Assembly: GCA_028713675.1 (NCBI GenBank) | Contig: JAQTNV010000016.1 | Coordinates: 54-64,053 of the forward strand | Length of the DNA: 64,000 nt | Reading direction: 5' to 3' | From: a bacterium | GTDB lineage: Bacteria; Desulfobacterota; JAPLJL01 | In this document: positions 21,936 to 58,190 of the stretch, one piece after another | Position numbering within the stretch: position 1 is the first letter of the stretch | How the letters are laid out: each line of letters starts with the position of its first letter | Notes under the pieces: model-generated | Database searches by the model: none | What the model was told of the DNA's origin: nothing | Seen by the model: only the letters and a program-made list of their open reading frames with translations | Program-made: the position numbers and the translations under genes

Positions 21936-21957
21936 CTTGTCCTCGAGCAAAGCGAAG
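21936..21957 (-). mobile_element. 22-bp CTTCG...GGACAAG micro-element (variant)
   Basis: Minus strand tc[cttcgctttgctcgaggacaag]gc, lying between the inverted arms gcaatagc/gctattgc. Confidence 0.5.
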
Positions 21958-21971
21958 GATTGCTATTGCAT

Positions 21972-22005
21972 TGCATCCCGCCCTGGCGGGATGCAGTTCC
22001 TCTAC
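21972..22005 (-). repeat. GTAG-type REP hairpin overlapping the C25 gene stop codon
   Basis: TGCATCCCGCC CT GGCGGGATGCA perfect 11-bp stem; the minus-strand GTAG contains the TAG stop. Confidence 0.7.
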
Positions 22006-25000
22006 TCAAGTCTGGCCGAAGGGTCTCCGAACAGATGATAGCTTCTGAGAATATCAGGCGACCCTCCACCCTGGACCTGGCTGATTTTCGCCTTCAGGAA
22101 ACTGGAGCCCAAAGTCTCGCCGTCAACCAGTGAGTGCAGGAAAACATTATTCAATTGAATCTGCTGTTCGGGATAAGTGAACCCGGAAGAGAACAGGCCG
22201 GCATAGGCCCCTCCGTTCGGAAGGCGGACCAGCTCCTCGCCCAGGGACTCAAGGTAAGGCACGTCAAAATATCCGCCCAGACAACTCAAGGCAACGGCCA
22301 GGAAGGTCTTCCCGTTCCCCGCGAGAGACGAGACATCAGCAACCCCGAAAATATCCTCCTGGGCATACTTATCGATGGCGGAATGGCCCGCATATTCAAA
22401 GATCCCCCGCCCTTCCAGGAGGGAGTTCAGAATCATCTGCCGGGTCGCCTCCAGGCCCAGGCTCCCCAGATAGGCCCGGGTGATATCGAAGCCCGGAGTC
22501 AGAATCGCCGCCGCCGCTTCCATTCCCTGCTCAAAAATCGGGTCATCGTTGTCCGCGGAAACCAGCACCTTTTCCCCGGCAAGTGTCCTGCCCTTCAGGG
22601 CCAGAATCTTCGCCACCATCGTCTGTACCTCGGCCGGGGTCCGGGCCGGCAGGCGGCCGATGGCCAGGTCGGGAATCTCGTCCGTTCCGTCCACGCAGGC
22701 ATACCAGTTGTCGGAAGGAGCGGTAAGTTCCAGGTAATCGTTGGTCACCTGCGGGGCCGGGATAAATCCGGTGTTCCCGGTGCCCATGTAATCCTTGAAA
22801 TCGTAGCTCGCGTCCCCGACCAGAAGCACATAAGCCGGGGCCGGGGAAACCCACTGATGATAGGTGAAGCCGATGAAATCCCTGATGGCCTGGGGATCGG
22901 CCTGGCCGTAATTAAACTCGTCGTAAATGTCCTGCACGTCCACCAAACTGACCCGCAGGCCCTCCTCAGCCCGGGCCGAAGCCAGGGGAGCCAGATCATT
23001 ACGGAAAGCGCTGGGACTGATGATAATCAAATCCGCCTCGTTACTCGGGTCCTTGAGCATGGAGGACTGGTCCCTCAAGAGGAAGGTCTGAGCGGTCAGC
23101 GCTCCTGCCGTCAGGACCATATATTCACCGGTCGCAGCCCGGAATTTCACCTGGTACCCGGATTCCTGCTGCGTAATGTTCAGGTCAATCACCCGGGCCT
23201 GGTCCGTCCTGGCCCCCAGCCGGTAAACCATAATATCGCCGCCGGGGAACCCGGGGATTTCCACGTTCGCGTCCGTAGGTACCTGGAACCTGACTTTCCC
23301 GGAACTTCCCGAAAGCGACCGCAGGTAGCTGACCTCGATGCTGTTCAGCAAAATCACGTTGTTGACCGCCCCGGTATCCCCGACCAGGGTCAGGGTCAGG
23401 GTATTTCCGGACGCGTTCATAACGCCGGCCGGGATGGAGAAGGATGCCGAAATCTCGCCCCGGCCTCCCCAGGAAATCTCCCCGATCACAACCCGGTTCA
23501 GGACCACCCGGAGGTGATTTTCATTCTCGATCGCGGGATCTTCCAGGAGACCGATCACGGACAGATTAATACTGCCTTCCGCGCCCGCTGCCGGATCGGG
23601 AATTTCCAAGGCGAAATCCTTGGGCTGATCGGAAACCAGGTAATCCCAATACCAATGATCGACCGGATCGCCGCCGGGCATGTTCGCGAAGTAATTCTTA
23701 TTCTGCTCCAGGAGCTGAACCTGGGTAACCTTGCTCAGGCCAGGCAGGCCCGATTCGGGAGAACCGGAAACCCTGGGCAGGGAGGAACCCATCCGGAGGT
23801 CGGGAACAATCCAATAAACCGAGGTCCGGGTGTATTTGCTGTCGGGTTTCCGCCCCACGAAACGCAGTTCGAGATTATTATCCTTGGCGCCCGCCAGCCA
23901 TTGCAGGAATCTTTTCTGCACATCCCGGGAATCGGACACACCTGCCCCGGCTACGGCCAATTCAACCGGGATCTCCTCGCCCTGGTAAAACACCCGGAGG
24001 CCCCTGGTCCGAAGTCCGAGGCTGCTCAGATTATTGAGAGGAACGCGGCAGATTCCGTCTTTGTCAATTCCCAACTTCACGGCCTGGCCGGAAAGGGTAA
24101 TCAATTTCCACTGTTCGTCCGCTTCCAGATACTTCAACCACTGCCCAAACGGGAGGGAATGCCTCGCGCCCAATCCCTGGGATAACCTTCCTAAACCTCT
24201 GAAGATGCCGCTTAAAAGGTCAGAATCCAGAAGCGGATCGGTTGCGCGGCATTCCCCGAGGTTCAGCTTGATTTCGATGGTTTCGGATACCTGGTATGTC
24301 CCAACTCCGGCACCGGGTTGGACCGGGTTAACCTTGAGGACCGCGATCCTCTGCCCCCGGAGGTAACCGGCTTCAGCGATTTGAACCAGCGGCGCGTTAA
24401 GCCGATTGGCACTGGTGGATGACATCCGGCTCAAGCCCAAGGGGTCCAGGTTTTTCTGGGCGTTGTTCCACTCGCGGTTCTGCTGCCGGAAAATTTGGCC
24501 CACGTCGGCGGATACCTGCCGGATATCGGTGGAACGAACCTGTCCCAGGCTCACGTTTTCGCAATCGGGAATCGCGACCACCCGTTCGAAAGGTATGGCC
24601 TGCCACTGGGATGGATTACCGGCCAGGCCGGGGAACTGGAGAAGAATCACGTTCCCGTTTTGAGTGTTCTTTCCTCCCCCGTTCGCCGGCGGCGGATTCA
24701 CCGGGTTAAGATTGCCGTTCGCGGGCGGATTGTGATCCTGATTACCGCCGGTGTCGGAATTCTGATTCTGGCTTCTGCCGCTGATATTTTCAGACAAATT
24801 CGGATTGTTATTGTCCGCCGGCAACAAATTTTCCGGAGAAGAAATTATTCCGGAAGCGGAAAGCGCAACGGCGGAAACCGGCCCGTGCGACTTGGTCTTC
24901 CCGTCAAACTCGACATCCTCAAGGAGGTAGTAATAGGTCGTTCCCGGCTCCACATCGTAATCGGTGTAATCGTAGTTCGACCCGAGGGCCGAAGTACCCA

Positions 25001-25919
25001 ACCCAGCGATCAGATATTTATTTATTTGAACATAGCCATCGTAGGGGCGGGGCTGGTCCCCGCCCGAACTGACGGTTGACCGGTAAAGGTTGAAGCCCAA
25101 ATTCCGGATCTCGGTTCCCGTGGCCCAGTTGAGCTTTATCCCTCCGACGGTCCCGGTAGCGTTGAATGAAATCAACTCGACGGCGGTAGGATTGGGTTTC
25201 ACGCCTTGGGAATTGCCGGAAAGAAAAGCGGTTGAATAGGTGGAAAAAGTATCCGTGTAAATTATTTTCAACGCGAAATAATAAATATCGGTATTGTTCG
25301 GCGTCGTAACAGTATAAGTAGTGCCGGTGATCAAACTCGCATTTGCCTTAGTCCAGGTATCGGCATCGGTGGGCAGATAACTTGTGCTCGTTGTCTGGTA
25401 GTAGTAAACGTCATACCCGGCAATCACATTGGTAGTCCCGGCATACTGCGCCGCAGCCCAGGATAAATCAACCTGACTGGATCTGACTGCAATTATCTGT
25501 GGAACTGGAATCGTTTGGAGCGTCGCCTCCGGGAAGAAGGTAATCCCTCCATCATCCCGGATCACGTCGCTGGTCACCGCATAATATCCGGTATGGGACG
25601 AACCTCCGCCACCTGACTGGTAATCTATCTTGGTTACGAATGTTTCTCCTAAAATATAAGTATCAATATTACCGGCGTCGGAATACCAAATATCAGAGGA
25701 AACATTACCGGAAAAAGGCAGGTCATCGTTATCATTGAATTTCCAGGTGGTAAAGGCAGTGCTTGAGCCTCCCGTGTTGGAAGCAACATGCCCGGACACC
25801 GCCCAGGAAGCTCCTGGCGGGGCCGCCTTTACAAATGAAGGGAACCCAGCAAGCAATAAAATCCCGCAAGATACACTGATAATATGCCTGAACTTATTCA
25901 TGATGTTAAATTTTAGCAT
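22002..25919 (-). CDS. Secreted C25 family (gingipain-like) cysteine peptidase with N-terminal FN3-like domains
   Basis: Signal peptide; PTAVELISF...GFNLYRS module; ADLIIISP, YVLLVGDASYD, SDNWY, LAIGRLP, YAGHS (His), LSCLGG (Cys), LFGDP. Confidence 0.9.
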   Translation of the reverse strand: MLKFNIMNKFRHIISVSCGILLLAGFPSFVKAAPPGASWAVSGHVASNTGGSSTAFTTWKFNDNDDLPFSGNVSSDIWYSDAGNIDTYILGETFVTKIDYQSGGGGSSHTGYYAVTSDVIRDDGGITFFPEATLQTIPVPQIIAVRSSQVDLSWAAAQYAGTTNVIAGYDVYYYQTTSTSYLPTDADTWTKANASLITGTTYTVTTPNNTDIYYFALKIIYTDTFSTYSTAFLSGNSQGVKPNPTAVELISFNATGTVGGIKLNWATGTEIRNLGFNLYRSTVSSGGDQPRPYDGYVQINKYLIAGLGTSALGSNYDYTDYDVEPGTTYYYLLEDVEFDGKTKSHGPVSAVALSASGIISSPENLLPADNNNPNLSENISGRSQNQNSDTGGNQDHNPPANGNLNPVNPPPANGGGKNTQNGNVILLQFPGLAGNPSQWQAIPFERVVAIPDCENVSLGQVRSTDIRQVSADVGQIFRQQNREWNNAQKNLDPLGLSRMSSTSANRLNAPLVQIAEAGYLRGQRIAVLKVNPVQPGAGVGTYQVSETIEIKLNLGECRATDPLLDSDLLSGIFRGLGRLSQGLGARHSLPFGQWLKYLEADEQWKLITLSGQAVKLGIDKDGICRVPLNNLSSLGLRTRGLRVFYQGEEIPVELAVAGAGVSDSRDVQKRFLQWLAGAKDNNLELRFVGRKPDSKYTRTSVYWIVPDLRMGSSLPRVSGSPESGLPGLSKVTQVQLLEQNKNYFANMPGGDPVDHWYWDYLVSDQPKDFALEIPDPAAGAEGSINLSVIGLLEDPAIENENHLRVVLNRVVIGEISWGGRGEISASFSIPAGVMNASGNTLTLTLVGDTGAVNNVILLNSIEVSYLRSLSGSSGKVRFQVPTDANVEIPGFPGGDIMVYRLGARTDQARVIDLNITQQESGYQVKFRAATGEYMVLTAGALTAQTFLLRDQSSMLKDPSNEADLIIISPSAFRNDLAPLASARAEEGLRVSLVDVQDIYDEFNYGQADPQAIRDFIGFTYHQWVSPAPAYVLLVGDASYDFKDYMGTGNTGFIPAPQVTNDYLELTAPSDNWYACVDGTDEIPDLAIGRLPARTPAEVQTMVAKILALKGRTLAGEKVLVSADNDDPIFEQGMEAAAAILTPGFDITRAYLGSLGLEATRQMILNSLLEGRGIFEYAGHSAIDKYAQEDIFGVADVSSLAGNGKTFLAVALSCLGGYFDVPYLESLGEELVRLPNGGAYAGLFSSGFTYPEQQIQLNNVFLHSLVDGETLGSSFLKAKISQVQGGGSPDILRSYHLFGDPSARLE
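25041..25065 (+). repeat. GTAG REP hairpin inside the C25 coding sequence
   Basis: GTAG GGGCGGGG CTGGT CCCCGCCC; read as GGDQPRPY on the minus strand. Confidence 0.7.
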
Positions 25920-25925
25920 AACCTT

Positions 25926-28900
25926 TTAATAATGAGTTGGCTGCCAGGTACTATTCCCGGTTATTCTAACGTAATAACCCATGCCCGGGGTTAAGGCGAA
26001 ATTTTCCCCGATCCAGAATGGCGTGAATGGAACTTTGGTCCCGCTGTGATAACAACCTCCGATGCCGCAATTCCCACCCGGATCCAAGTAACCGACGCTC
26101 GCGCAATTAGGTACGCTGGAGCATAAAGTCTTTGCGTCCGCATAATTGTGGTGGAAAGGCAAAGAGAAATAATTATTATTGGTTTTTCCGCTATAGAACG
26201 TCTTGGATATCATGGTGATTTGATTATGAGATCCTACTAAAACCATATTTGAGTTCGCGGTAATCCGAACATAATATCCTTGGCTCGGATCAATTGTGAA
26301 ATTCTCCCCTATCCAAAAAGGCGAGAATGGAACCTTGGTCCCGCTATGATAGCATCCTCCCACTCCGCAATTCCCGCCCGGATCCGAGTAACCGATGCTT
26401 GCGCAATTAGGAATATCCGCGCAGAGGCTTTTGGCATCAGTGTAATTATGGAAATATGGAATTGTCACCCAGTTATTGTCTGTTTTACCGGCATAATAAG
26501 TTAAAGCCCTGTTAAGCTTGAATCCCATATTGGAATCCATTGACTCCAGACCCCAGATATTCACCGAAGTGATCAAATAATAATAGTTTTTATTCGTATC
26601 CTGAATTACCCAGGGATCGATATATTCGGCACTGGGTGATGTTCCGATAAGATTGCTAAAGCCGACTTTGTCTGGAACGAAATTCGGGGTTTCGCCACGG
26701 TAAACTCGGTAATAATTAATAGTGGTAGGATCACCATCCACCGTTTGAGTTACCGCTGTCCAATAAAGACGCAGGTCAGTCCCAGATTTATTCGCTTTCA
26801 AATCCGAAATCGCCTTCGGGGGGCTGGAAGGATAGAAACTGATAATAGTGCTTCCCGAAGCGCTCCCGCCGTAGGCGATGTCGTCGGCGCTGATACTGGC
26901 AATACCGTCGATGATGGCGGACTGAACGACAAATGAAATCATTCCCCCGCTCGTGCTGGCTTGGATTCCAGGTGTTAATGCATCCATATCGGAGGAAATA
27001 ATTATTCCCCAGCTGGTTGCAATCGTGATGTAAGTACCATCCGGAACGGTATTGCCGTATGCGTCCTTAATCACATCGCTGGTGACCGTGCTGGTGCTGG
27101 CTCCGTCCGCGGGAATAGCGCCCGGATTGGGAAGAAGGGTTATCGTCCCGGCGGGCGGGCCCGGGGTTAAGGCTACCGTCGTGCTTCCCGAAGCTGTCCC
27201 TCCGTAAGCGCTGTTGTTGGCGCCGAGATGGGCGGTACCGGCTAATGTCCCGGCCCGGAGAACAAACGTAATAATCCCTCCTGAAGTAGCAACTTCCTGC
27301 GTCCCCGGCGTCGCCGGATCAGCATCAGCGGTGGTTATCGTCCCCAGGTCCGTCGAGACAGTTATATATTCCCCATTCAGGACCTGGTTGCCGTAAGCGT
27401 CGTGGATTATCCCGCTGGTAATGGTGCTGGTATCGCTCCCGTTGGCCGTGATCGTTGCTGGGACCGGGGTAAGAGTAATAGGCCCCGTCGGGATATTGGA
27501 AAGGACCTGAACCGCGTCGGAGACCGAACGAGTCTGATTGTTGGTTCCCCCATCGGTCAGATAAAGTGTCGGAAAATAGGAACCCAGGGTGAAGCTTCCG
27601 CTCACCGCCTGGGAGTTGAAAATCAGATGCTGCGTGGCGCCAGCCGGGATGGAAACCAAAGAGTTAAGATCGGCGGTGTAAGTCCTCGTTCCATCGGTGA
27701 AGGTGAAATAAGATCCGGTAGCCAGGCTTACCCCCTGCCCTCCCATATTTATCACGTCGAGCCCGAAGGAAACCGGGTCTCCCGCGCGGGCGGAGGTTGG
27801 CGACAGAGTGCTTCCAATATAAAGAAGGTTTGACCCCACGTAACCGGTGAAATAAAGGACCTGGGCAGCCGTGGCTCCCAAATAAGAAGCGGTAACAACG
27901 GATTGGGTATTCACGGAGGAAACCGGAGCGGTCAAGGTCACCCTGGCCACCCCGGAACCGTCGGTCACCGCCGTCCCGGAGGAAAGTGTGCCGGAGGTCG
28001 CGGTAAAGCTGACTGTCTGGCCGGAAAGCGGTGTTCCTCCGGAGGTCAACAGCGCGTCAACCGCATAAACGCTGGAACCATCCGCGGGAAGCGGTCCGGC
28101 CGGGATGTTGGAAAGCGAAACTTCATATAGAGTCACCAGGACTTTATCCGACGCCGTCCCCAGGTAATTATTACCCTGCCTGAATACCGCTTGGATAACA
28201 TATTCGGTGTTTTCCGGGCGGGCCGGGACTGCGGAGCAAACAACGCTGAAGGTCGCCGAGCCGCCAACCGGGAGGTTGGCTCCAGTTCCGCCCGCCGAGG
28301 CCGCGCGGAAAGTCAGGTTGTTTCCTTGGATGGTAAGGGCCCAGTTCCCCAGCGGGGCACCCGGACCGGTCGCACTGACAACAGTAAAACCGGTCGGGAC
28401 GATAAACCACATCCGGTCAACCGGGGTTGAACCGTTGTTAGCCACGGTTAAATTAAGCGTCCAATTCGGGGGAACGCTGCCTGACGCCACGGTGTCCGGG
28501 TTTAATATCAGGTAATACGGAACCAGCTGGCCGGACTGCGAAACGGCTGTATTAGTGGTAGTCGGCCCATTGGCCGTAGCATCACCCTGGAATTGGTAAG
28601 TATCCCCGCCAACGCCGTTTACTTGATAAATCCAGGTAAATGTTCCGGAACCTCCGGGAGGAAGACTGGCAATGGACTCCGGAGATGGACCTGACTGCAA
28701 TGTCTTGCTGGCAGTTCCAAGAAAGGTCAAAGCCGAAGGAACAATATTTCCAAGAGAAATTGTGCCGTTATTGGTCACGCGCATGGAAACAGTCACGTTA
28801 TAACCCGAACCGATGCTGACCGGGTCGAGAGCAAGTTCGGCGGTGAAATTCCCGATTACGATAGTATTGGATGAAGTTTGATTGGAGGAAACCATCCCGT

Positions 28901-30452: not shown

Positions 30453-30814
30453 GCTTCTAATCGAACCCGGGTTTCGGCCATGACCCGGTAAATTTTTGAC
30501 AAAACGATGGCCTTCATACCTGCCGATATTTTAAATAAATCCTGATTTTTATCGGTGACCCTGGTCACCCGGTCGACTCGCCCGAAAACCCGCTCCTTTT
30601 CAACCGGCGGATCGAAATTCCGACAACGATCTCCCTTGGTTAGAAACATTCCATTCTTGGATCCATACAGGCGGTGGACAAACAGGCTGGAATTTCTCCA
30701 GAAAGCGATAACGTCACCCTTGCGTAATTCTTCGACCCCGCAGGCTCTGACCTCTACCTGGTCACCATGGTTAATGGTCGGAACCATGGATTTGCCTTTA
30801 ATTTCGATTTGCAT
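30449..30814 (-). CDS. S24/S26 family peptidase (signal-peptidase-like, no transmembrane anchor)
   Basis: GKSMVPTI (Ser), GDVIAF, FVHRL (His in the Lys position), LTKGD. The stop overlaps the ATG of the adhesin gene. Confidence 0.85.
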   Translation of the reverse strand: MQIEIKGKSMVPTINHGDQVEVRACGVEELRKGDVIAFWRNSSLFVHRLYGSKNGMFLTKGDRCRNFDPPVEKERVFGRVDRVTRVTDKNQDLFKISAGMKAIVLSKIYRVMAETRVRLEA

Positions 30815-31063
30815 TTTAAAATGGTCAAAATTTAGCTATTCAACATTGAGCACAAGCCAACCACTACCTTCCCTGGCGGAGCCGGGGCGCATATCCCTGC
30901 CCTTCCCTCAATTTTTTCCTCTAAAATAATCCTGGGTTTTTCATAAGGTTTCTTCTGAATATTTTTGACTTCTTTTTTGAGCTTTTTTTCAGACATATTT
31001 TCCCGCCTTTTCCTGTTGTGCCCGCGGTTAATTACATTTACTCAATTTTCCCGGTAAAAACTC

Positions 31064-31090
31064 GGCAAATGTTCAGGAACATTTGCCTAC
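31064..31090 (-). repeat. GTAG-type REP hairpin
   Basis: GGCAAATGTTC AG GAACATTTGCC followed by TAC; 11-bp perfect stem. Confidence 0.75.
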
Positions 31091-31180
31091 CAAGCCTTAA
31101 GTATATTGTATGGAGGTAATCTTATTAAGTCAATTATATATAGGCAACAATATTATATGGTTTCAGTGCCAGTGTTTTTG

Positions 31181-31545: not shown

Positions 31546-31554
31546 GATATTTTG

Positions 31555-31672: not shown

Positions 31673-31739
31673 ACTTAAAGATGACATGGGTGAAAAAATT
31701 CAGTTCAACCTGAACCAAAAAGGAAGAAGGAGAAATTTA

Positions 31740-33930: not shown

Positions 33931-34400
33931 AAAGAGCACAGCGCAAAAGGCATCCTCCTACGCAAAGAAGCTTCGGAGGACAGATCGAGCAAAGCACATG
34001 GGCAGTAGCTTTACCATTGACGATTGCAAATTGACGATCTCATAAAACACATTGACGATTTACGATTGACGATTGTAGATTAAGGGAAAGAATCATCTGA
34101 ATCATCTGAATCATCTGAATCATCTGAATCATCTGAATCATCTGCTATTCTTTATTCATAATTCATCGTTGTTATTATTCTTGGTTTTAATCCGTCAATC
34201 TACAATCTGCAATCGTCATTTCTTCTTTGGTTTTCACTCGTCAATCGTCAAGTTTTGCAAGGCTTCCCTCGGCCACAATGCCTCGGGATCTAATCGAAAA
34301 GACTTGCCAGACATTCCGTTTCTCTTGCTTTTCATTCGTCAATCCTTCGACTTCGCTCAGGACAGGTCGTAAATCGTCAATCGTCAATTCTTTTTCATTC
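33931..34400. repeat. Large intergenic repeat block with nested micro-elements
   Basis: TTGACGA arrays and inverted TCGTCAA arrays; AATCATCTG x6 at 34091-34144; inserts at 33954-33983 and 34345-34366; composite REP at 34257-34312. Confidence 0.9.
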
Positions 34401-37971: not shown

Positions 37972-38055
37972 CTTACCAAAATTAATAGGGTCCCAGGAGT
38001 CGAGGGTTCCTGGGTTCGAGGGTTCAAGAGAAAATTAGAAATCAAAGATAATAAC

Positions 38056-38119
38056 GTCATTCCCGCGAACGCGGGAATCCAGAAAAACAGACTGGATTCC
38101 GGGTCAAGCCCGGAATGAC
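38056..38119. repeat. Inverted pair of GTCATTCC...GGAATCCAG hairpins (REPIN-like)
   Basis: gtcattcccgcgaacgcgggaatccag and ctggattccgggtcaagcccggaatgac. Confidence 0.85.
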
Positions 38120-38190
38120 AAGAATTTATTAACCCCCTGCTCCCTGCTTCTTGCCCCATGCTTTATGCTCTCTGCGCTTTGCCCTTTGCG

Positions 38191-46265: not shown

Positions 46266-46304
46266 TTACTCCTTAATTTTCTCTGATATGTCTGGTCTTT
46301 TTTA

Positions 46305-46632
46305 GCAAGGAGCAGGGAGCATGGCGCATAGGGTTTACCCCAAAACCAGAAACCTGGATTCCTGCTTTCCTTCGATCATACTCAGGACAAGTCGCAGTAA
46401 TGACGTTATGATTTTTCATTCGTCTTTTATTGTTTGGTTTTCACTCCGCATATCTCAGCAAGGTTGAAGCCTTGCCCTACATTTCCCCTTGGACCCTCGA
46501 ACCCTATTTTCTTTCTTCGCAGCCTAAAGGCTGCGGCTACCTTGGACTCTATTTTTTCTCTGCTCTTACCCTTGAACCCTGGAACCCTGTTTTTTTTCCA
46601 TTCCGCAATCCGCATTCCGCAATCCGCAATTA
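46305..46632. repeat. Intergenic block: heptamer arrays, hairpin with 22-bp insert, GTAG REPs
   Basis: ctggattcctgcttTC[46370-46391]TCgcag; gcaaggttgaagccttgccctac at 46458-46480; gcagcctaaaggctgcggctac at 46519-46540; tccgcaa array. Confidence 0.85.
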
Positions 46633-46635
46633 CCG

Positions 46636-48531
46636 TTATTCTCCCGTTGGGAGAAAAACGGTAAATCTCGTTCCTTCCCCGACCTTGCTGTCCACCTCGA
46701 TCCGACCTTTATGCTTCTCGACAATCCCATAGGCCACCGAAAGACCGAGCCCGGTTCCCTCTCCGGGGGCCTTGGTGGTAAAGAACGGATCGAAAATCCG
46801 GGGAAGATTCTCTTCCGGAATCCCGGCGCCGGTGTCATTTATCTCCACTCCCACATTTCCGTCCTGGGCGAAGGTCCTGATCCTGATCTCGCCCCGCTTG
46901 GGAATCGCCTGGGCGGCGTTGACCAGGAGGTTTAAAAACACCTGGTTCAGTTCCCCGGGTATACCCATGACGCTGGGAATGTCGCCGAATTCCCGAATTA
47001 CTTCGGCTTTATACTTGAGCTCGTTATTGATTACCGTCAGGGTCTCTTCAAGCCGTTCGTTCAGGCTAACCGGCTCGGGCTTTCCCGAATCCGCCCGGGC
47101 AAAGGCCTTGAGGTTTTTCACGATCTTGGAAACCCTCTCTGTCCCCTGCCGGGTTTCGTCCACCAGCCTCCCAAGGTCCAAGACCAACCCGTCAAGATTC
47201 ATCTTCCGCCCGAGTTCGTCCAGCTCCCGGGCCAACCCGGCGATTTTCACCCGGTCGTTTTTTTTCCAGGCGGAGAGGAACTCCGTCTGCCGGGAAATCA
47301 ACCCGAGTAGATCCTGAAAATACTCATGGAGGGAATTCAGGTTCGACTGGATATATCCGATCGGGTTGTTGATCTCATGGGCCACCCCCGCGGCCAACTG
47401 GCCCAGGCCGGCCAGTTTTTCCGATTGGATCAACTGGGCCTGGGCGTGCTTCAACTGCGCGTTCGATTTTTCCACATCGCCTAATGCTCGGGAAAGTTCG
47501 CGGGTTCTTTCCTTCACCCGCGACTCGAGTTTTTCATGCGACTTTTTAAGGTCATCAGTGATCCGGGCATTTTCGATCGCCACCGCGATATGGGGGCCGA
47601 AGGAAAGCAGAAGCCCAAGGTCGGATTCCGAAAAAGCTCGGCCGTCTTTACGGTTGATCACCTCGATCACCCCCACCACCTTCCCCCGTACGAGAAGTGG
47701 GGCAGCCAAGAGCGAGCGGGTCTGAAAACCGGAGTTCCGGTCAAAGTTTTTATCGAAGCGGGAATCCCGGGAGGTATCGGGGACGAGGAGAGGCATCCTT
47801 TCCGCCGCCACCCACCCGGCGACTCCCTGACCAAGCTTGATGGTCTGGTGTTCAAGTTTTTCCGCCCTAGGTCCCAAAGCCACCGCGATCCTGAGTTCCT
47901 GACCGCTCTCGTCCAAAATCATTAATGAAGAAGCCTCGGCCTGGAGCAGGTTCTGGGTATGCTCCATTACCAGGTTTAAAAGGGGGTCGAGTTCCAGCGT
48001 GGAGGTAATCGTGGTGGAGATCCGCCCGATCAGCTCCAACTGGCGGACCTGGCCGACGAGTTCGCCCACCAAGCGGCGGTTTTCCGCCCGGAGATCGAAC
48101 TTTTCCCTCCCCCGGCGGACGGCGTTCGCCAAGTCTTCCGGCTGAATAGGCTTGACCACATAATCGTATGCCCCCGAATGAATGGCTTCGACCGCAGTGT
48201 CTAGGCTGGCATGGGCGGTGATGATAAGAACCGAGGTGTCCGGGCAGATCTCCAGGAACTGGGGCAGGATCTTGATCCCGTTTTCATCCCCGAGAAACAG
48301 ATCAAGGAGGACCACCCCGGCCGGATTTGCCCGGAAAGCCTCGATCGCTTCCGTGACTGTTCCGAAGGCGGAAACCCGGTAGCCGGCCTTGCGTAATATT
48401 TCGGAATATACCTCCCGCAAAAAAAGATCATCATCCAATATCAAAACATCAAAAGACAGTTTCGAGTTTCGAGTTTCGGGTTTCGGGTTGTCAGTTTCGA
48501 GTTTCTGGTTCATTTCGTTAGGAACGCTCAT
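46636..48531 (-). CDS. REC-GAF histidine kinase
   Basis: LILDDD, LLDLFL; GAF ([16 protein letters not shown]); GVAHEINNP; NLLVNAAQA; GTGLGL. Confidence 0.93.
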
Positions 48532-48633
48532 TTGGTTTCTTTGGTTTCTGGTTTCTGGTTTCTTGTTAAATACCTTGGGTATCTTTTTCTTTTTTTTCTA
48601 ACTCGAAACTCGAAACTACAAACTCGAAACTAT

Positions 48634-49137
48634 TTATATAAGGATGTTTCCCTTCTCGTCCTTCTCTACCATACCGATTCCCGGGTGCTCCAACTCCAGG
48701 TCTTTCAGGATCTGCTTTTGTTTATTAACCTCCGCGGACAGGGCCCGGTTTTCGCGCTGGATCTTGAGATGCTCCAGGGCCAGGCGGATCGTGATCCGCA
48801 GATCCTGGTCGTCCCAGGGCTTGGTCAGGAACCGGTAAACCCCCGCCGAATTGATGGCCTCAATCGCCGCCTCCATGTCGGCATGACCGGTCAGGATAAT
48901 CCGGATGGTATCCGGGTAATCGGCGGCGACCCGTTTCAGGAACTCGACGCCGTCGTGCACCGGCATCTTGTAATCGCTGATTATGAGGTCGATCGGGCTC
49001 GCATAAAGCTTGTTTAATCCCTCCATCGCGGAGCCGGCGATCAAAACCTCATATGACTCCTTCCGAAGCGACCGGGCCAGGGCATTCAAGACGTTCACCT
49101 CATCATCAACCAAGAGGACTTTATATGCCTTTTCCAT
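48634..49137 (-). CDS. Response regulator (REC)
   Basis: LLVDDE, IISDYKMP, ILTGHAD, KPW. Confidence 0.92.
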   Translation of the reverse strand: MEKAYKVLLVDDEVNVLNALARSLRKESYEVLIAGSAMEGLNKLYASPIDLIISDYKMPVHDGVEFLKRVAADYPDTIRIILTGHADMEAAIEAINSAGVYRFLTKPWDDQDLRITIRLALEHLKIQRENRALSAEVNKQKQILKDLELEHPGIGMVEKDEKGNILI

Positions 49138-49227
49138 TTCCCACCCCCAATCTGGTTTATCTGTTTTTTTTAGTTTCTTTAGTTTCTTTGGTTTTCATTC
49201 CGCAATCCGCATTCCGCAATTTATATG

Positions 49228-49343
49228 AGCAATGCTTGTGCCAGGTATAAATAGACTGGGTAAAAACTGTCACCGACGGTGATAATGTTTGATGGAGCCC
49301 TGACATCCGGGTCACAATTTACCCAGGGAGTCACAATCGACCC
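49228..49343 (-). promoter_or_regulatory. Sigma-54 promoter with tandem enhancer sites
   Basis: TGGCACAAGCATTGCT at 49243-49228; GGGTC-ACAATT-TACCC at 49309-49324 and GAGTC-ACAATC-GACCC at 49328-49343. Confidence 0.82.
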
Positions 49344-49349
49344 ATGCAA

Positions 49350-50165
49350 ACATCTGTTTCGGGTTTCTAGTTTCTGGTTTCGGATTGTCAGTTTCGAGTT
49401 TCTGGTTTCGAGTTTCGAGTTTTAAATCTAATTTATTAATCTGATTTTCTTGGTCTTTTTGGTTCATTTGAATCTTTTTGATTAACCGGAATCTAAAAAC
49501 AACTTTTTATTCCCTTGTTTTAACTAGAAAATAGAGACGAGAAACTCAAAACTTGGTTTTCCCTTCTTTTATTTCAACTCGAAACTGTCTTCATCGTTTT
49601 TATTCAGTACTTCTTTGTTGCCTTAAACCCGAAGCTGTTTTTATTGTCCGCTGAACAATCTCCACACCAGAACCGCCCCGATCGCCAAAGCAAAAAGGAC
49701 CGGATAAAGCACCTCCTTGCTGAAAATCTGCCTTTCCAACCTCCGGCGGCGGTGATGGCGCCTTCCGATTGCGGAATGCGGATTTCGGATTGCGGATTGG
49801 CTATTTGTTATTTCGGCCTGTCCGTTACCTTGATCAGTCAGGGATTGATCGTTCTCAATCGTTGAGGTGATTTCTTTGCTCTCCATCTGTTTTCTCCGGT
49901 TTTTTTAGTCTCTGATCTTGGGCCATTGTTAGCAAAGGGCATAGGGTTGAGAGCAAAGGGTTAAAGAACGAATCTGGATTCCCGCTCCCGCGGGAACGAC
50001 GTTATGATTTTTCATTCCGCATTCCGCAATCCGCAATTCCCTAGACCCCTCGAACCCTTTCTTCGCAAGGCTGAAGCCTTGCCCTACTTGAATTACGCAA
50101 CCTAAAGGTTGCGGCTACCAACTTTCTTCGTTTTTCATTCCGCAATCCGCATTCCGCAATCATCA
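49350..50165. repeat. About 0.8 kb repeat-rich intergenic region (TTTCGAG, AAACTCG and TCCGCAA arrays; REPs at 49974-50001, 50065-50087, 50097-50118)
   Basis: Direct reading of multiple arrays and hairpins. Confidence 0.85.
49641..49886 (-). CDS. Small putative membrane protein with repeat-derived segment
   Basis: GGAGA RBS; Arg-rich RRHHRRRR followed by one TM helix; SQSAIRNPHSA encoded by a TCCGCAA array. Confidence 0.45.
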   Translation of the reverse strand: MESKEITSTIENDQSLTDQGNGQAEITNSQSAIRNPHSAIGRRHHRRRRLERQIFSKEVLYPVLFALAIGAVLVWRLFSGQ

Positions 50166-52250: not shown

Positions 52251-52306
52251 CCTGATAAAAATTTCTTTAATTACAGAGTATTTATTATATGTTTAAGGTA
52301 AATGCT

Positions 52307-52322
52307 TGCAAATATCATTCCA
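52307..52322 (-). promoter_or_regulatory. Possible sigma-54 promoter
   Basis: TGGAATGATATTTGCA, correct GG/GC spacing, 57 bp upstream of the kinase start; no enhancer motif seen. Confidence 0.4.
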
Positions 52323-52701
52323 TTCAGTATCGATTATATATAACATATTAATTTTTATAAATAAATTATATATATTTATTTATATTATAAATCATTTAAT
52401 TAATAAAAAAAAACAACAGAAATTCCTGAATAATTCCATATAATTATCAATGATTTCAATATGTTATATTTATATTGATGAAATTTTCAACAGGTATAGC
52501 AAAATCATATAGGATTAGATGTTAAATTCGGATTAGGGGCCGATTGAGGAGTGAAAAATAGGTAGCCGGCAGCCAATGACAAGTAGCCGGCAAACAAAGG
52601 AAATCAGGATAATGATTGGAACAGATCTGATTTTAGAGAGAATGGGGCTTATTATTTCTTTTCGTAGTGCGACTTTTTAGGGTAGATCCTTTGAACTCTA
52701 T

Positions 52702-54051
52702 TTATTCGAACTTGTATTTTTTCAATTTATAAACGAGCGTGGTGCGATGTATACCCAGGTTCTTCGCGGCTAGGGATTTGTTGTTTTTGCACATCTTAAG
52801 AACATTTTGAATGTGTGCCTTTTCCGAACCTTCTAAGGATAAATCGGCTTTCCCGGTGGAAATTTCCCGGCTACTTACTCTCTTTCTGACCTCTTCGGGT
52901 AGATGTCCGGCCTGGATAACCCCTTCCGAGCAAATCAAGACCGCCCGCTCGATAATATTTCGCAATTCCCTGATATTCCCCGGCCAGTAATAAGAATGCA
53001 ATAAAACTTCCGCCTCTTCGGAAATTCCCGAAACGTTATGTTTGAGGGACCGGTTGAATTCCTCCAGCATGATCCGGGCTAATGGCAGGATATCTTCCCG
53101 CCTCTCCCGGAGCGGCGGAAGCCGGAGCGGCATTACCTTCAAGCGATAATAAAGATCTTCGCGGAACTTCTTCTCCTTGACCATTTCATCTAAGTCGATG
53201 TTGGAGGCGGCCATGATCCTGACATCCGCGTTGATATTTACCACCCCCCCGAGCCGCCGGAAGGACTTTTCCTCGATTACCTTGAGAAGCTTGGCCTGGA
53301 CGGAAAGCGAAAGATCCCCGATCTCGTCCAGAAAAACGCTTCCCCCGGCGGCCACTTCCAGGAGGCCGCGCTTCTGGCTTCTGGCATCGGTGAAAGCCCC
53401 GGCTTCATGGCCGAAAAGCTCGGATTCCAGCAGGTTCTCACTCAGGCCCGCGCAGTTGAGGTCCACGAAGGCTCTTTCCCGCCGATCGCTTAAATCATGG
53501 ATAATCCGGGAAATCATTCCTTTCCCGGTTCCCGTTTCCCCCAGGATTAATACGTTCACGGAGGATTTTTCGGAAAGTAATTTGATGCCACGGTAAATCT
53601 CCTCGGGCTGGCGGAGTTTAGAATATGTTTCCTTGCCTTCCAGCTTGGAAAGCTTTTCCCGGAGATACTGAGCCTCTATGCGCCGGGCGTAATTTTCCAG
53701 GCAGTTATTCACAATCACCAGCAGGGAAGCCAGCTCGATCGGCTTGAGGACGAAATTGTCCGCTTTCAGCTTGATCGCTTCGACCGCGGTTCTCACGTCC
53801 CCGTAGGCGGTAATGATAATCACCGCCTGGCCCGGAGAAATAGCCTTGATCTGCGACAATACTTCGAGCCCGGACAGGTCAGGAAGCTTGAGATCCAGAA
53901 GGACGATGTCTACGTGCCGGCTCCGGCAAATCTCGATGCCGCTTTTCCCATCGGCGGCGGTTTCGACGTTGAACCCCTGGGAGACGAAATACGTCTTCAG
54001 GTTCCGGCGGATGGAATCTTCATCGTCAACGATCAGAATGGTGTTGATCAT
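52702..54051 (-). CDS. Sigma-54-dependent REC-AAA+-HTH activator (AtoC-like)
   Basis: GETGTGKG, ESELFGHEAGAFTDA, FLDEIG, FREDLYYRL, WPGNIREL, Fis-type HTH. Confidence 0.95.
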   Translation of the reverse strand: MINTILIVDDEDSIRRNLKTYFVSQGFNVETAADGKSGIEICRSRHVDIVLLDLKLPDLSGLEVLSQIKAISPGQAVIIITAYGDVRTAVEAIKLKADNFVLKPIELASLLVIVNNCLENYARRIEAQYLREKLSKLEGKETYSKLRQPEEIYRGIKLLSEKSSVNVLILGETGTGKGMISRIIHDLSDRRERAFVDLNCAGLSENLLESELFGHEAGAFTDARSQKRGLLEVAAGGSVFLDEIGDLSLSVQAKLLKVIEEKSFRRLGGVVNINADVRIMAASNIDLDEMVKEKKFREDLYYRLKVMPLRLPPLRERREDILPLARIMLEEFNRSLKHNVSGISEEAEVLLHSYYWPGNIRELRNIIERAVLICSEGVIQAGHLPEEVRKRVSSREISTGKADLSLEGSEKAHIQNVLKMCKNNKSLAAKNLGIHRTTLVYKLKKYKFE

Positions 54052-54255
54052 ATGAATGCTCGTTTCGAGTTTCGGGTTTCGAGTTTCGAGTTCAGATTAA
54101 ACCCAATAATATTCAAATAACAGAGGCCATGAGTTCGAAACATCGTTTGTAATTTATTAGTCATATGAATGCTCGTCTCGAGTTTCGAGTTTCGAGTTTC
54201 GAGTTCAGATTAAACCCAAAAATAATCAAAAAACAGAAGTTATGAGTACGAAACC
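54049..54255. repeat. 113-bp-period tandem duplication containing a heptamer array and the start-codon context
   Basis: catatgaatgctcg...gagttcagattaaaccca...gag..cgaaac occurs at 54049 and at 54162. Confidence 0.9.
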
Positions 54256-54645
54256 TCATTTGTACTTGTTACCTTTTATTTCAGATCTCCGCAAATAATT
54301 CATCAAGCCGCCAGCCAATTTCCCCACTTCAGTTACCTTAACAAATAGCTGGTTAAAAGAATCCTGATTCAGATAACCCTGATCAAGGGCAACATAGAGT
54401 TGGCTTTTAACTTCACCGCTAGAACCTTTCGAAACGGAGAGAAATTGGATGAATTCCTTGGTCCCACCTCTCTCGAAACCTTCGGCTATGTTTGAAGTAA
54501 TTGAAACACAAGCTTTTCTCAATTGCTCTCGCAAACCGATATCTCTGTTGAATTTGCCTATATTTGACAAGGCGTAAATTTCATTGGTAAGTTCCCGACC
54601 TTTCTGCCAGGCTTCAATATCTTCGAAACATTTAAAGGTCGCCAT
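54256..54645 (-). CDS. Four helix bundle protein (23S rRNA IVS-protein / Avd-like family)
   Basis: FEDIEAWQKGREL, LREQLRKACVSITSNIAEGFERGGTKEFIQFLSVSKGSSGEVKSQL. Confidence 0.93.
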   Translation of the reverse strand: MATFKCFEDIEAWQKGRELTNEIYALSNIGKFNRDIGLREQLRKACVSITSNIAEGFERGGTKEFIQFLSVSKGSSGEVKSQLYVALDQGYLNQDSFNQLFVKVTEVGKLAGGLMNYLRRSEIKGNKYK

Positions 54646-54669
54646 CTTCTTTCTCCCTTCTTCCTTATT

Positions 54670-54767
54670 AGTTTCGGGTTTGTAGTTTCTAGTTTCTGGT
54701 TAAAAACTTTAAAACATTTATCATCTCTTTTATTTAACTCGAAACTCGAAACCCGAAACTCGAAACT
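54670..54767. repeat. Inverted heptamer arrays upstream of the four-helix-bundle gene
   Basis: agtttcgggtttgtagtttctagtttctggtt, AT-rich spacer, aactcgaaactcgaaacccgaaactcgaaact. Confidence 0.9.
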
Positions 54768-57700
54768 ATTTTATCGGTAGCTCCACGATAAACTTCGCTC
54801 CTTTTCCCGGTTCTGACTCCACCCGGATGTCGCCGCCGTGATCCAGGATGATCCGCCGGGAGATCGCAAGGCCCATTCCGTAGCTCCCCTTTTTGGTGGT
54901 GAAGAAAATCTCGAATATCTTATCCTTCATCTCCTTCGGAATCCCCGGGCCCATGTCCTTCATCGAGACAATCAGCGTTTTTCTCTTTTCGTCGGCCCTG
55001 GCTTCGATCTCGATGACATCCCCCTTCCCGGAAACCTCGATGGCGTTCTGCAAAAGGTTGATAAACACCTGGATCATCTCGCCCTTTTCCACCATCACCG
55101 GAGGCAAGTCCGGCGGCATCTTCTTTTCGACCTTTATTCCATTGACCTTCATTAATCCCGAATTCAGGGAAGCAACCTCATCCACGACTTCCCGCATGTC
55201 TACGGGGGCGAAAGCAATCTCGTTCAGAGCGCGATGGCGGCCGTAATCCAGAAGCTGTCTGACCAGGTAATCCATCCGGATGGTTTCCCTCAAAATAATT
55301 TCCAGGGTTTCTTTCTGAGCGCCCCCCAGTTTCAGGTGGTCGTGCAGGATCTCAATCCCGCTGGAAATCGCGAAAAGCGGGTTTTTGATCTCGTGAGCGA
55401 TATTACCGGCGATTTCCCCGATGGCGGCCATTCTCTCGGATTCCTTCAACCGTTTTTGGAGCTTTTTCTCCTCAGTGATATCGCGGGTCACATGGATCAC
55501 CCCATAACACTTATTTGCCGCGTTGAACATCGGGGTAGTCGTAATCAGGTAATCTCTCTGCAATCTCTCCGAGCGGACCATGTAGTTGCAGGATTTTCCC
55601 TCGGAAATACACCGCGATTGTCGGCAATATTCCGGGGGCGCGTCGGTCTTATGAATAAGGCGAAAGCATTGCTGTCCGATGATCTCGGGAAAGGAAAGCC
55701 CCAAAAAATCCGCCAGGGCCTGGTTGGCGCGGAGGATCCGGTAATTCAGGTCCTGCACCATGATCATATCGGGAATAGAGTCGAAAGTGATTCTCCAGGC
55801 GGTGGAGGCGTTTTTGATCATTTCCTCGGCTTGGATCTGTTCGGTAACGTCATGCAGGATCATCCCCAGTCCATCTCCTACCTTGAAAATGTCTATACAA
55901 ACGTATCTAAATTCCCCCATTGATACAGATATTTTCTGCCTCGACCGGTGAAAAGGCTTTCCCGTTTTCAATACATCCAGGTATTTGTCGAGCATATCGG
56001 AATCCCGAATCGTGGGAGAAACTTCGGTTAATTTTTTCCCGATCGCTTCCCGGCGGGAAAAGCGTTCGGCCAGCTCCGGGGATAGTGCCCGGTTGAAATC
56101 GACCAGGTTCAAATCCTGATCGAAAATATAGAAAAGGTCCGTCGCGGCGCAGGAAAAACGGCTCCATCGTTCCGTGATCACCTTTTTTTCCTCCTGAAGC
56201 CTTTTTAGCTCGGTGATGTCGACCACCGCGCCTTCAATGTGTTCCGTCCCCGGTATCATCTTGACCGAATAATTGACCCAGATTGGCGAGCCGTCGGCCT
56301 TTACCCCCCTGGCCTCGTAACCCGTGATCTCGCCGCTTTCTTTCAGTTTCCTGAGCAATCGTCTCTGATCGTCCAGATCGTTAAAATGCCGGGCCACCGA
56401 ATAATCCCGCAGGCATTCTTCCCGGCTTTTATAGCCGAGCATTCCGGCGAACCGCTCGTTGCATTCGATCACCTGCCCGTCGGTAATCCGGGTCCGGTAC
56501 AAGCCCACCTGTGCGTTATGGAAAAAGTTTCGATACTTCTCTTCGCTCAACCTTAGCTTATCTTCCGCCTGCTTAAGATCGGTGATGTCCTGCATAGTGC
56601 CAACAATCCGGTATGGGTGGCTTGATTGGTTACGGTATGCGACTGCGTGCTGGTTAATATGCTTGATCGTACCATCCGGCAGAAGAAGCCGAAACTGGAT
56701 TTCGGCATGATCTTCTTTTTCTAAAAGCAGATTGATAAAAGAATTGTTTTTATTCCGATCATCTGGATGAATCAAAGCCACGATACCATCGAAGGTGAGT
56801 GGTATTTCCCGGCCTAACCCGAACATTTGATATACCGTCTCAGACCAAGTCAATTTGTTGCCTTCAACATCCCAATCCCAGTTCCCGAGTTTGGCGATAT
56901 CCTGGGCCTGGACCAATTTATTTTCGTTCTCCTTTAGTATTTCCTCCGCCCGCTTGCGCTCGGTGATGTCGCGGGAAAAAACAAAAAGTCGGCCGCCGCT
57001 GATATCCATGAAATTGACGCTGATTTCGAAATCTATAATTTTTCCGTCTTTATGGCGGAGTTTGGTTTCAAAACGATCCCCTCCCGTTGCGATGATTTTT
57101 CTGATGCGAGCGCCGGTTTCTTCCGGTTTTTCCTCAACCACGATATCCGAAATCTTCATTCTCAGAAGTTCGCTACGGCTGTAACCAAGCATGCGGGAGC
57201 AGGCGTCGTTCGCCTCTTGAATATTTCCCTGCAGATCGTCAATCCAAAATCCGTCTATCGAAGTGTCAAGAATGGCCTTATATATCTCCTCGCTTTGGCG
57301 GAGACTATTTTCGGCCCGTTTCCGCTCGCCGATATCCCGGGCCAGGCTCAAAACCGATACCACCCGGCCGTCTTCAAAAATCGGTACCGCGTTTATTTCC
57401 ATTTCAATGATTTTGCCCTGGGAGTTTCGGGTCTTCAGATTCAGGCCATAAATCGGATGGCCCTGGCGCAGTTCATCAGCGAGGCGAATCAACTCTTCCT
57501 GGTTGTCTCCGGCAAAGTAATCCAGGTAACTCTTCTTTTTGAGCTCCTCGAGCGACACACCCAGAATTTTGAGCACCGCGGGATTCGCATCCAGAAAATT
57601 CCCATTCACATCATTGATGCAAATGAAATCCGGGCTGTTGTTGAAAATAAAGCGATATCTTTCCTCGCTTAGCCTCAGTCTCTCGGCAATGTTCTTTTGC

Positions 57701-57840
57701 TCAGTGATGTTTAATTTTAGTGCGCTTAAATCCCGGGGGGGCTTCTTCATTTTTACGGCCGTTGACTTCACCAAACGCGGCTGCCTACGAGGCCTGCCTT
57801 TCTTTATTTTTTTTCTGTTTTTTTTCTTTTTTTCCGGCAT
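54766..57840 (-). CDS. Cytoplasmic multi-PAS histidine kinase
   Basis: About 6 PAS domains; NIAHEIKNPL; NLLQNAIE; GMGLAI. Start MPEKKKK at 57840. Confidence 0.93.
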   Translation of the reverse strand: MPEKKKKNRKKIKKGRPRRQPRLVKSTAVKMKKPPRDLSALKLNITEQKNIAERLRLSEERYRFIFNNSPDFICINDVNGNFLDANPAVLKILGVSLEELKKKSYLDYFAGDNQEELIRLADELRQGHPIYGLNLKTRNSQGKIIEMEINAVPIFEDGRVVSVLSLARDIGERKRAENSLRQSEEIYKAILDTSIDGFWIDDLQGNIQEANDACSRMLGYSRSELLRMKISDIVVEEKPEETGARIRKIIATGGDRFETKLRHKDGKIIDFEISVNFMDISGGRLFVFSRDITERKRAEEILKENENKLVQAQDIAKLGNWDWDVEGNKLTWSETVYQMFGLGREIPLTFDGIVALIHPDDRNKNNSFINLLLEKEDHAEIQFRLLLPDGTIKHINQHAVAYRNQSSHPYRIVGTMQDITDLKQAEDKLRLSEEKYRNFFHNAQVGLYRTRITDGQVIECNERFAGMLGYKSREECLRDYSVARHFNDLDDQRRLLRKLKESGEITGYEARGVKADGSPIWVNYSVKMIPGTEHIEGAVVDITELKRLQEEKKVITERWSRFSCAATDLFYIFDQDLNLVDFNRALSPELAERFSRREAIGKKLTEVSPTIRDSDMLDKYLDVLKTGKPFHRSRQKISVSMGEFRYVCIDIFKVGDGLGMILHDVTEQIQAEEMIKNASTAWRITFDSIPDMIMVQDLNYRILRANQALADFLGLSFPEIIGQQCFRLIHKTDAPPEYCRQSRCISEGKSCNYMVRSERLQRDYLITTTPMFNAANKCYGVIHVTRDITEEKKLQKRLKESERMAAIGEIAGNIAHEIKNPLFAISSGIEILHDHLKLGGAQKETLEIILRETIRMDYLVRQLLDYGRHRALNEIAFAPVDMREVVDEVASLNSGLMKVNGIKVEKKMPPDLPPVMVEKGEMIQVFINLLQNAIEVSGKGDVIEIEARADEKRKTLIVSMKDMGPGIPKEMKDKIFEIFFTTKKGSYGMGLAISRRIILDHGGDIRVESEPGKGAKFIVELPIK

Positions 57841-57859
57841 TGCTCTCTCTCTAAATTTC

Positions 57860-58190
57860 TCTGGTCTATGAATGGCATAGGGCAAAGGGCATGGCGCAAA
57901 GAGCAGGGAGCATGGCGCAGGGAGCATGGCGCATATGATTTAACCCCAAACCAGAAACCTGGATTCCTGCTTTCCTTCGACCATACTCATGACAAGTCGC
58001 AGGAATAACTTTATAATTTTTCATTCGTCAGATTTTTGGGGCTCACTCGTCATTCGTCAATCGTCACTTCTTCTTCGGTTTTCATTCGTCATTCGTCAAT
58101 TCTTTTTTGTTTTTCATTCCGCAATCTACAATCCGCAATCCGCAATTCTTTCTAACTCGAAACTCGAAACTAGAGACTCGAAACTAGTAT
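57860..58190. repeat. Intergenic repeat block, paralogous to 46305-46420
   Basis: gggagcatggcgca arrays, ctggattcctgcttTC[57975-57996]TCgcagg, tcgtcat/tcgtcaa, tccgcaa and aaactcg arrays. Confidence 0.85.

Follow-up and report, generated by a model that had tools for sequence, protein, structure and literature searches.

What is the 22-nt sequence of the form CTTCG-N11-GACARG that occurs four times in contig JAQTNV010000016.1 (GCA_028713675.1), each time inside a hairpin or a tandem array, and how did it come to be there? The stretch analyzed, hereafter the window, comprises 64,000 nt (positions 54 to 64,053 of the contig), in which these four exact matches compare with 0.07 expected, and none of 100 dinucleotide shuffles reached four. 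An earlier reading made from the sequence only had proposed a 22-bp insertion that duplicates a TC target. We favor, with moderate confidence, an explanation in which the four units are copies of a pan-bacterial, non-autonomous micro-repeat of 23 to 24 nt, and in which such solitary copies are the solo end-modules of a family of cassettes with a GIY-YIG nuclease gene, laid down in trans.

All four 22-mers reported by the sequence-only reading were recovered, and each takes the form of TC followed by a 22-nt core. The scores given with them derive from a gap-free profile built from 240 independent copies of the family, for which the maximum among shuffled sequences was 18.6 bits. The copies, with the hosts of copies 1 and 4, are as follows.

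34343 to 34366, plus strand: copy 1, TC plus CTTCGACTTCGCTCAGGACAGG, 37.6 bits, placed exactly between two heptamer units
34336 to 34387, plus strand: host tandem array of copy 1, reading TCGTCAA, insert, TCGTAAA TCGTCAA TCGTCAA
46368 to 46391, plus strand: copy 2, TC plus CTTCGATCATACTCAGGACAAG, a T...A variant, 25.3 bits, in the TTTC loop of a hairpin of the Ssn-related motif (SRM) type
57973 to 57996, plus strand: copy 3, TC plus CTTCGACCATACTCATGACAAG, 23.7 bits, likewise hosted by an SRM hairpin with loop TTTC
21936 to 21959, minus strand: copy 4, TC plus CTTCGCTTTGCTCGAGGACAAG, a diverged and probable member in a hairpin loop, four edits from copy 1
21927 to 21970, minus strand: host hairpin of copy 4, with arms TGCAATAGC and GCTATTGCA (ΔG −9.8 kcal/mol, z −3.3)

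Among the "22-type" sequences of the family, the core of copy 1 is the most common, and the identical 22-mer is present in many phyla. As the earlier reading had noticed, this copy interrupts a TCGTCAA array whose period can be restored; cutting out 24 bp (34343–34366) regains the 7-bp TCGTCAA/TCGTAAA register, and a module at 2887–2977, paralogous to the host of copy 1 (87% identical), ends in an insert-free TCGTCAA unit. Copies 2 and 3 represent the T...A sub-variant of the family. That reading had also placed both in hairpin loops, which holds, and suspected a common origin; the two copies lie within a 121-nt block that is 90% identical (repeat D14, 46304–46424 and 57909–58029). Because they share this block, we count them as one event, in which the insert was duplicated along with its host. 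The fourth copy had likewise been assigned to a hairpin, and a strong one is indeed found there, downstream of a minus-strand open reading frame ending at 22002, but its flanks read TC...GC. Copy 4 fits the family only if one deletion and one insertion are allowed and is missed by the gap-free profile, and for these reasons its membership is probable and less sure than that of copies 1 to 3. A further sequence at 62836–62860 on the minus strand, TTCCTTCGACCAT, matches copy 3 over its first 13 nt, including the leading bases, before diverging, and adjoins a GCAAGGCTTCCC module. It was not detected by the profile and may be a truncated or decayed copy.

The family to which these copies belong has the consensus 5′-YC CTTCGAC (2–3 variable nt) GCTCAGGACARG-3′, with a total length of 23 to 24 nt. 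A scan of viral contigs with the pattern CTTCGA-N3–6-CTCAGGACARG yielded at least 120 loci, and genomes taken one per species yielded at least 120 more; the counts from both of these large collections are samples rather than totals. Core lengths among the viral matches listed were 21 nt (58 loci), 22 nt (61), 23 nt (5) and 20 nt (none), a distribution that chance would not give. The genomic matches listed span more than 20 phyla. They include Chloroflexota, Acidobacteriota, Nitrospirota, Verrucomicrobiota, Bacteroidota, Myxococcota, Desulfobacterota, Planctomycetota, Patescibacteria, Alpha-, Beta- and Gammaproteobacteria, Actinomycetota, Cyanobacteriota and approximately ten candidate phyla. 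Cultured carriers are found among the Bacteroidota (Gelidibacter, Leeuwenhoekiella, Aquimarina, Altibacter) and the Alphaproteobacteria. Throughout the phyla of the matches listed, the conserved ends of the unit are near-identical and only its center varies. We found no description of the sequence or of the peptides that it encodes in the literature, and a BLAST search of plasmids with a 35-nt query returned matches that were mostly too weak for use.

Where, then, does the inserted block begin and end? C directly precedes CTTCG in 108 of 113 non-redundant viral copies, and C or T stands at position −2 in 110, regardless of the bases downstream, whereas TC occurs on both sides in only three. 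Copies that lie within tandem arrays locate the junctions precisely: L251 reads TAG|CC+22|GGTT, L071 reads CTCAGCA|CC+22|CTCAGCA, and L231 reads TCTGGTAA|CC+21|TCTGGTAA. In these arrays the net insert is 24 nt, the host unit is whole on both sides, and the flanks of the insert are unlike. Because the array units remain intact between differing flanks, the inserted block consists of YC plus the core and is not accompanied by a target duplication. Blocks of the 22-type measure 24 nt, those of the 21-type 23 or 24 nt. Thus, the left TC of the window copies is part of the element, and the right TC is contributed by the host, either as the start of the next TCGTAAA unit or as the end of the TTTC loop. 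The proposed combination of a 22-bp unit with a duplicated TC target is accordingly not sustained.

Direct evidence for insertion comes from a gene for a 784-residue, non-contractile tail-sheath protein of phages or gene transfer agents (Pfam NCTSP_N, TIM-barrel_NCTSP, DUF2460), in which the unit lies in frame. Among 79 relatives, 70 are empty at this position (…TTGPD-A/S-LRVD…), eight are filled (…PDAPSTGSGQGLRVD…) and one is partly deleted. Filled and empty alleles differ by exactly 24 nt, in frame, which adds the residues APSTGSGQ. In a tree of the gene based on the flanks, the filled state appears in three separate places, and filled and empty alleles are mixed within one tight clade. At the same codon position, different lineages (L121–L200) carry an intact unit, a copy diverged at five of its 24 nt, or a 15-nt remnant. 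This pattern reflects either repeated gain at one site or the spread of an allele by recombination. Insertion is therefore proven in the family, in the tail-sheath gene, and not in the window, whose empty sites are paralogous only (2808, 38055 and 2966–2977).

The hairpin that hosts copies 2 and 3 has the form CTGGATTCCTGC...GCAGGAATGAC, with the loop TTTC, or in short CTGGATTCCYGC..GCRGGAATGACG; read from the opposite strand, the same host is CGTCATTCC(C/T)GC...GC(G/A)GGAATCCAG. Judged by its sequence, it is the Neisseria Transformation Sequence (NTS), or SRM, of Chenal et al. 2025 (PMC11893778). The Ssn nucleases described in that paper are strand-specific endonucleases of single-stranded DNA; they bind to a hairpin with a tag and cleave a few nucleotides upstream of it (PMC11893778). 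A search with the pattern HGTCWYN(0–2)YYVSBRHN(0–5)WNVSBRGN(0–2)RNCYNB gave two uninterrupted matches in the window, compared with 0.46 expected. The filled copies miss the published pattern solely through their long loop. The filled and empty forms in the window are the following.

46354 to 46405, minus strand: filled host hairpin of copy 2, NTS/SRM type, with a weakened stem GCAGTAATGAC (fold −2.4 kcal/mol)
57959 to 58010, minus strand: filled host hairpin of copy 3, NTS/SRM type
2808 to 2835, minus strand: empty SRM hairpin CGTCATTCCGGCGAAAGCCGGAATCCAG, a pattern match and paralogous empty site, with loop TTTC on the plus strand (−8.8 kcal/mol, z −4.3)
38055 to 38082, plus strand: empty SRM hairpin CGTCATTCCCGCGAACGCGGGAATCCAG, a pattern match that fits the NTS consensus exactly
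49973 to 50000, minus strand: degenerate variant of an empty SRM (plus-strand sequence CTGGATTCCCGCTCCCGCGGGAACGACG), without a match to the SRM pattern

The hairpin at 2808 has TTTC as its loop and therefore shows the form of the filled copies before insertion. The same type of loop has been struck independently, at other loop positions, in another metagenome-assembled genome (MAG; L306) and in one metagenome contig. Several further observations concern these hairpins themselves. At 38055–38122, two inverted SRM/NTS hairpins stand approximately 12 nt apart and resemble a REPIN-type doublet (GTCATTCCGGGCTTGACCCGGAATCCAG, then CTGGATTCCCGCGTTCGCGGGAATGACG, read from the minus strand). A metagenome scan for SRMs with loops of 16 to 40 nt (L340–L459) revealed many other micro-units built of a tag plus a hairpin in the loop, such as TGGAGTTTACCCCGTACTTGATACGGG, CGGAGCCTGCCCTCGACCTGATCGGGG and TCCCCGTTTTCACGGGGACAAGC, with loop lengths that peak at 26 to 28 nt. 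The same scan recovered the 24-nt unit in reverse orientation, in hybrid form with a different tag, and as a nested version whose stem is longer. In L326 and L329, an SRM beside an ssn-like gene, approximately 100 nt after this GIY-YIG gene, carries an AGCCTG-tagged GC hairpin in its loop (GTCATGCCCGCGAAG[AGCCTGTGCCCGCAACGGCGGGTAC]GGGCATCC).

A preference for such hosts is evident across the family. A perfect flanking stem of at least 7 bp is present at the junction in 5.3% of 225 independent copies versus 0.7% of random positions in the same loci, and a 7-mer common to both sides of the junction, as expected of an array, in 6.7% of the 225 copies versus 1.0% of controls. Each type of flank is thus enriched approximately sevenfold, and one copy (L053) lies exactly at the center of a 14+14-bp palindrome. 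The sequence-only reading had inferred a family of repeat-targeting micro-insertions; the family is real and its flanks are enriched as described, but approximately 88% of copies reside in ordinary DNA, some of them in frame in genes, and a hairpin loop or array is not the usual host. Copies occupy loops, arrays, coding frames and phage contigs, and they share no gene context. The number lying within long open reading frames was judged unreliable in GC-rich DNA. An association of solitary copies with tRNA genes was tested and rejected.

The unit also shows signs of internal structure. Covariation links the base that follows CTTCGA with the one that precedes CTCAGG (C:G 191, T:A 15, G:C 2, others 17; Fisher p = 3e−14), and this covarying Watson–Crick pair closes the variable center. 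A nested variant from a metagenome extends the covarying stem. Pairing within the element is limited to this one covarying pair plus CCT/AGG, which yields a very imperfect hairpin, and if the covarying pair matters, it probably does so in a protein-bound single strand. The possibility that the variable center is derived from the target was rejected, as no excess over permutation was observed. A weak polarity signal is present as well, the sense strand coinciding with the G-rich strand in 134 of 210 loci (p = 1e−7).

A candidate partner for the unit emerged from L288, where a canonical copy adjoins a gene for a GIY-YIG protein (PF01541) of 99 residues. Homologs of this protein, from a Patescibacteria-type clade, provided six further contexts, making seven cassettes. 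In all seven, the gene has a module CTTCGGCAAGCTCAGTGCA(A/G)GC (CCCTTCGGCAAACTCAGGGCAAGC in L288) immediately on its 5′ side, and six of the seven carry an inverted copy of the module at the 3′ end. The 5′ modules score 18 to 27 bits with a profile built from solitary copies only, whereas 95% of shuffled sequences fall below 6 to 8 bits. On this comparison, the 24-nt module shares homology with the terminal inverted repeats of cassettes of approximately 0.45 kb that contain one gene only, for an Ssn-like GIY-YIG nuclease of a single domain, and because of this homology we read the solitary copies as solo cassette end-modules. Four cassettes start directly after the 3′ end of a tRNA gene (Glu, Glu, Asn and Gln), and on the far side of each lies a direct repeat of this end, 18 bp long. 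Given this start and this repeat, the cassettes behave as insertions themselves. Those in L460, L462, L467 and L468, approximately 0.45 kb long with a nuclease of approximately 98 residues as the sole gene product, resemble minimal tRNA-targeting insertions. Small GIY-YIG genes with inverted SRM flanks were also encountered in phage-like contigs, which reproduces the main genomic observation of PMC11893778.

The unit has a fixed polarity and is inserted seamlessly, as a block of 23 to 24 nt that leaves its target unduplicated. Its preferred sites are those at which DNA easily becomes single-stranded, namely the apical loops of hairpins (including the SRMs of the window), the centers of palindromes and tandem heptamer arrays, although ordinary DNA and, in frame, genes receive it as well. 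If the solitary copies are indeed written by a cassette nuclease, the process might run as follows. An Ssn-type nuclease, specific for strand and structure in single-stranded DNA, would act in trans, and short templated copying or ligation at single-stranded sites might then complete the insertion.

Several observations weigh against a nuclease-driven origin of this kind or against its extension to the window. All cassettes with module-type ends belong to one Patescibacteria-type clade, 15 other Ssn-like genes are flanked by NTS-type SRMs and not by the 24-nt module, and a small GIY-YIG gene is present in only three of approximately 240 loci with solitary copies; the window has none. No GIY-YIG nuclease is known to catalyze strand transfer or to join DNA. 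The free element has no stable fold (ΔG −0.3 to −1.2, z ~0), and the T:A covariants could partly be one sub-lineage rather than independent events. The comparison with empty sites, proposed earlier as a check, gave filled and empty alleles for the tail-sheath gene, but neither an orthologous nor a population-level empty site turned up for the four window copies. Logan contigs from three landfill runs contained no joint skipping 24 bp at the 46.4-kb and 34.3-kb sites, only depth spikes from other copies. A search for the orthologous locus through the neighboring response-regulator protein returned a single 983-bp contig and no empty site.

A broader proposal, which we put forward tentatively, is that the unit is the solo end of mobile DNA of an unrecognized class, in which a GIY-YIG (Ssn-type) single-strand nuclease takes the place of a transposase. 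Full elements of approximately 0.45 kb would home to tRNA 3′ ends, and their end-modules would be written on their own into the hairpin loops, arrays and genes of most bacterial phyla and of their phages. If true, the modules would rank with the smallest known mobile DNAs and would supply proteins generally with insertions of 8 codons. To our knowledge, very small mobile repeats have until now been described from a single cyanobacterial family, with no known enzyme. A module of 24 nt that is sharply defined, spans more than 20 phyla, inserts without a footprint and is homologous to the termini of minimal cassettes with a GIY-YIG nuclease gene offers a concrete, testable candidate for the mover of such tiny repeats. 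There are practical consequences also, as the module yields spurious peptides in gene calls (PSTGSGQA, LRLRSGQA, FDRLRTG), breaks assemblies at intergenic mosaics and can lengthen the loops of Ssn target hairpins.

A serious rival, although one that we consider rather improbable, is an origin without any dedicated enzyme, by replication slippage and template switching in quasi-palindromic repeats followed by duplication or gene conversion of the resulting composites. The structure of the 21-type speaks for such an origin. It can be written as CTTC+GACAGGCTCAG+GACAGG, a partial 11-nt tandem repeat, and the reverse complement of its first 16 nt forms the center, CTGAGCCTGTCGAAGG, of a common hairpin that often hosts it (13 of 130 genome copies). 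Likewise, L314 contains, at 3292–3365 read from the minus strand, three tandem 24-nt units (CTC+CTTCGACAGGCTCAGGACAGG) inside the right arm of a large inverted repeat of the CCGTTCGCCCTGAGCCTGTCGAAGGG type. In the landfill runs, depth rises approximately 20-fold over 46351–46404, and the window's composite of SRM and insert is therefore multi-copy in that metagenome. Slippage does not readily account, however, for ends that stay near-identical across so many phyla while only the center varies, for the Watson–Crick covariation, for the clean 24-nt insertion into an unrelated coding sequence, for the homology to cassette terminal repeats, or for a variable center that does not derive from the target.

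An unlikely alternative is an element of the REP (repetitive extragenic palindromic)/REPIN kind, moved on single-stranded DNA by a RAYT or an IS200/IS605-type HUH (Y1) transposase. The absence of duplication, the fixed polarity, the preference for hairpin loops and the weak bias toward the G-rich strand would all fit such transposition, but the element is not palindromic, has no GTAG or CGTC head and is not preceded by a fixed target tetranucleotide 5′ of the insert. Near the copies no HUH gene was noticed, although HUH genes were not searched for systematically. It is very improbable that the unit is a selected functional motif, for instance one that binds a protein or serves regulation, whose recurrence reflects convergence and not insertion. 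Its strong sequence conservation and the position of copies 2 and 3 near gene starts could be understood in this way, yet filled and empty alleles differ by exactly one unit, and the copies lack a common gene context and, in the window, differ in their orientation to neighboring genes. A 22-bp miniature transposon that duplicates TC is scarcely credible; the TC on both sides of three of the four window copies had suggested it, but the fourth ends in GC, and in 96 to 98% of 225 independent copies Y-C precedes the core whatever follows it, with TC on both sides as rare, and array units as intact between unlike flanks, as described above. Chance similarity has nothing in its favor beyond the shortness of the unit and is already refuted for copies 1 to 3, which score 24 to 38 bits, as it is disfavored by the number of matches in the window and by the dominance of lengths 21 and 22 in a scan that also allowed 20 and 23.

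The preferred explanation, a mobile end-module, invites comparison with several known systems. The closest in behavior are the small dispersed repeats SDR1–8 of Nostocaceae (Elhai et al. 2008, Genome Res 18:1484), which measure 21 to 27 nt and are described in PMC4390886, PMC5861425 and PMC13756078. One of them, SDR5, is described as inserting precisely between nucleotides 3 and 4 of HIP1 (PMC4390886). The family described here likewise provides a unit of 21 to 27 nt placed precisely inside other repeats, being 23 to 24 nt long and found in SRM loops, palindromes and arrays. Compared by description only, the two share their size class, their dispersed and non-coding nature and their precise entry into other short repeats. 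Small dispersed repeats are reportedly also built of conserved flanks around a variable core. They differ in distribution, as the 24-nt family extends to more than 20 phyla among the matches listed and to phage contigs, whereas small dispersed repeats are reported to be restricted to Nostocaceae (PMC5861425). One copy of the 24-nt family lies in a Trichormus MAG (L299).

The SRM/Ssn system offers a second parallel. In the cassettes of one Patescibacteria-type clade, small GIY-YIG genes of a single domain lie between inverted relatives of the 24-nt module, much as others lie between SRMs (PMC11893778), and in both systems the repeat has a fixed polarity and places a short tag next to a paired core. 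SRMs are inverted repeats of 20 to 50 nt that form a hairpin, however, and no variant of the 24-nt element matches the SRM pattern or forms a stable hairpin, its tag is GGACARG(C) rather than CGTCA, and the canonical Ssn genes sampled carry NTS-type flanks, not the 24-nt module. REP and REPIN sequences, with their RAYT enzymes, are short, abundant and mostly extragenic, and their spread is attributed to a single-copy enzyme supplied in trans (Bertels and Rainey 2011, PMC3116915). The 24-nt unit resembles them as a short, abundant repeat that occurs in mosaics with other repeats. REPs, however, are imperfect palindromes with a GTAG/CGTC head that form inverted doublets and are species-specific, whereas the unit is non-palindromic, solitary and shared across phyla; membership was rejected on the lack of a palindrome and of either head. 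Correia/NEMIS miniature inverted-repeat transposable elements (MITEs) and Rickettsia palindromic elements are 100 to 150 bp long with terminal inverted repeats, and MITEs are accompanied by target duplications. As non-autonomous insertions that can sit in frame in genes they recall the 24-nt unit, but YCCTTCG and GACARG, at its two ends, do not form inverted repeats, no duplication is present, and MITE membership was rejected also.

Two other repeats of the window are abundant in the landfill runs. The module GCAAGGCTTCCCTCGGCCACAATGCCTCGGG at 34262–34303 has a summed contig depth of 2,000 to 3,000 there versus approximately 10 for unique flanks; it recurs at 2888–2948 and 62772–62832 and constitutes a separate, very abundant repeat. 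Over the CCGCAAT heptamer array at 46594–46647, summed contig depth exceeds 1,000 in four of four runs, one of them from a different study, and the array word is thus common to many organisms.

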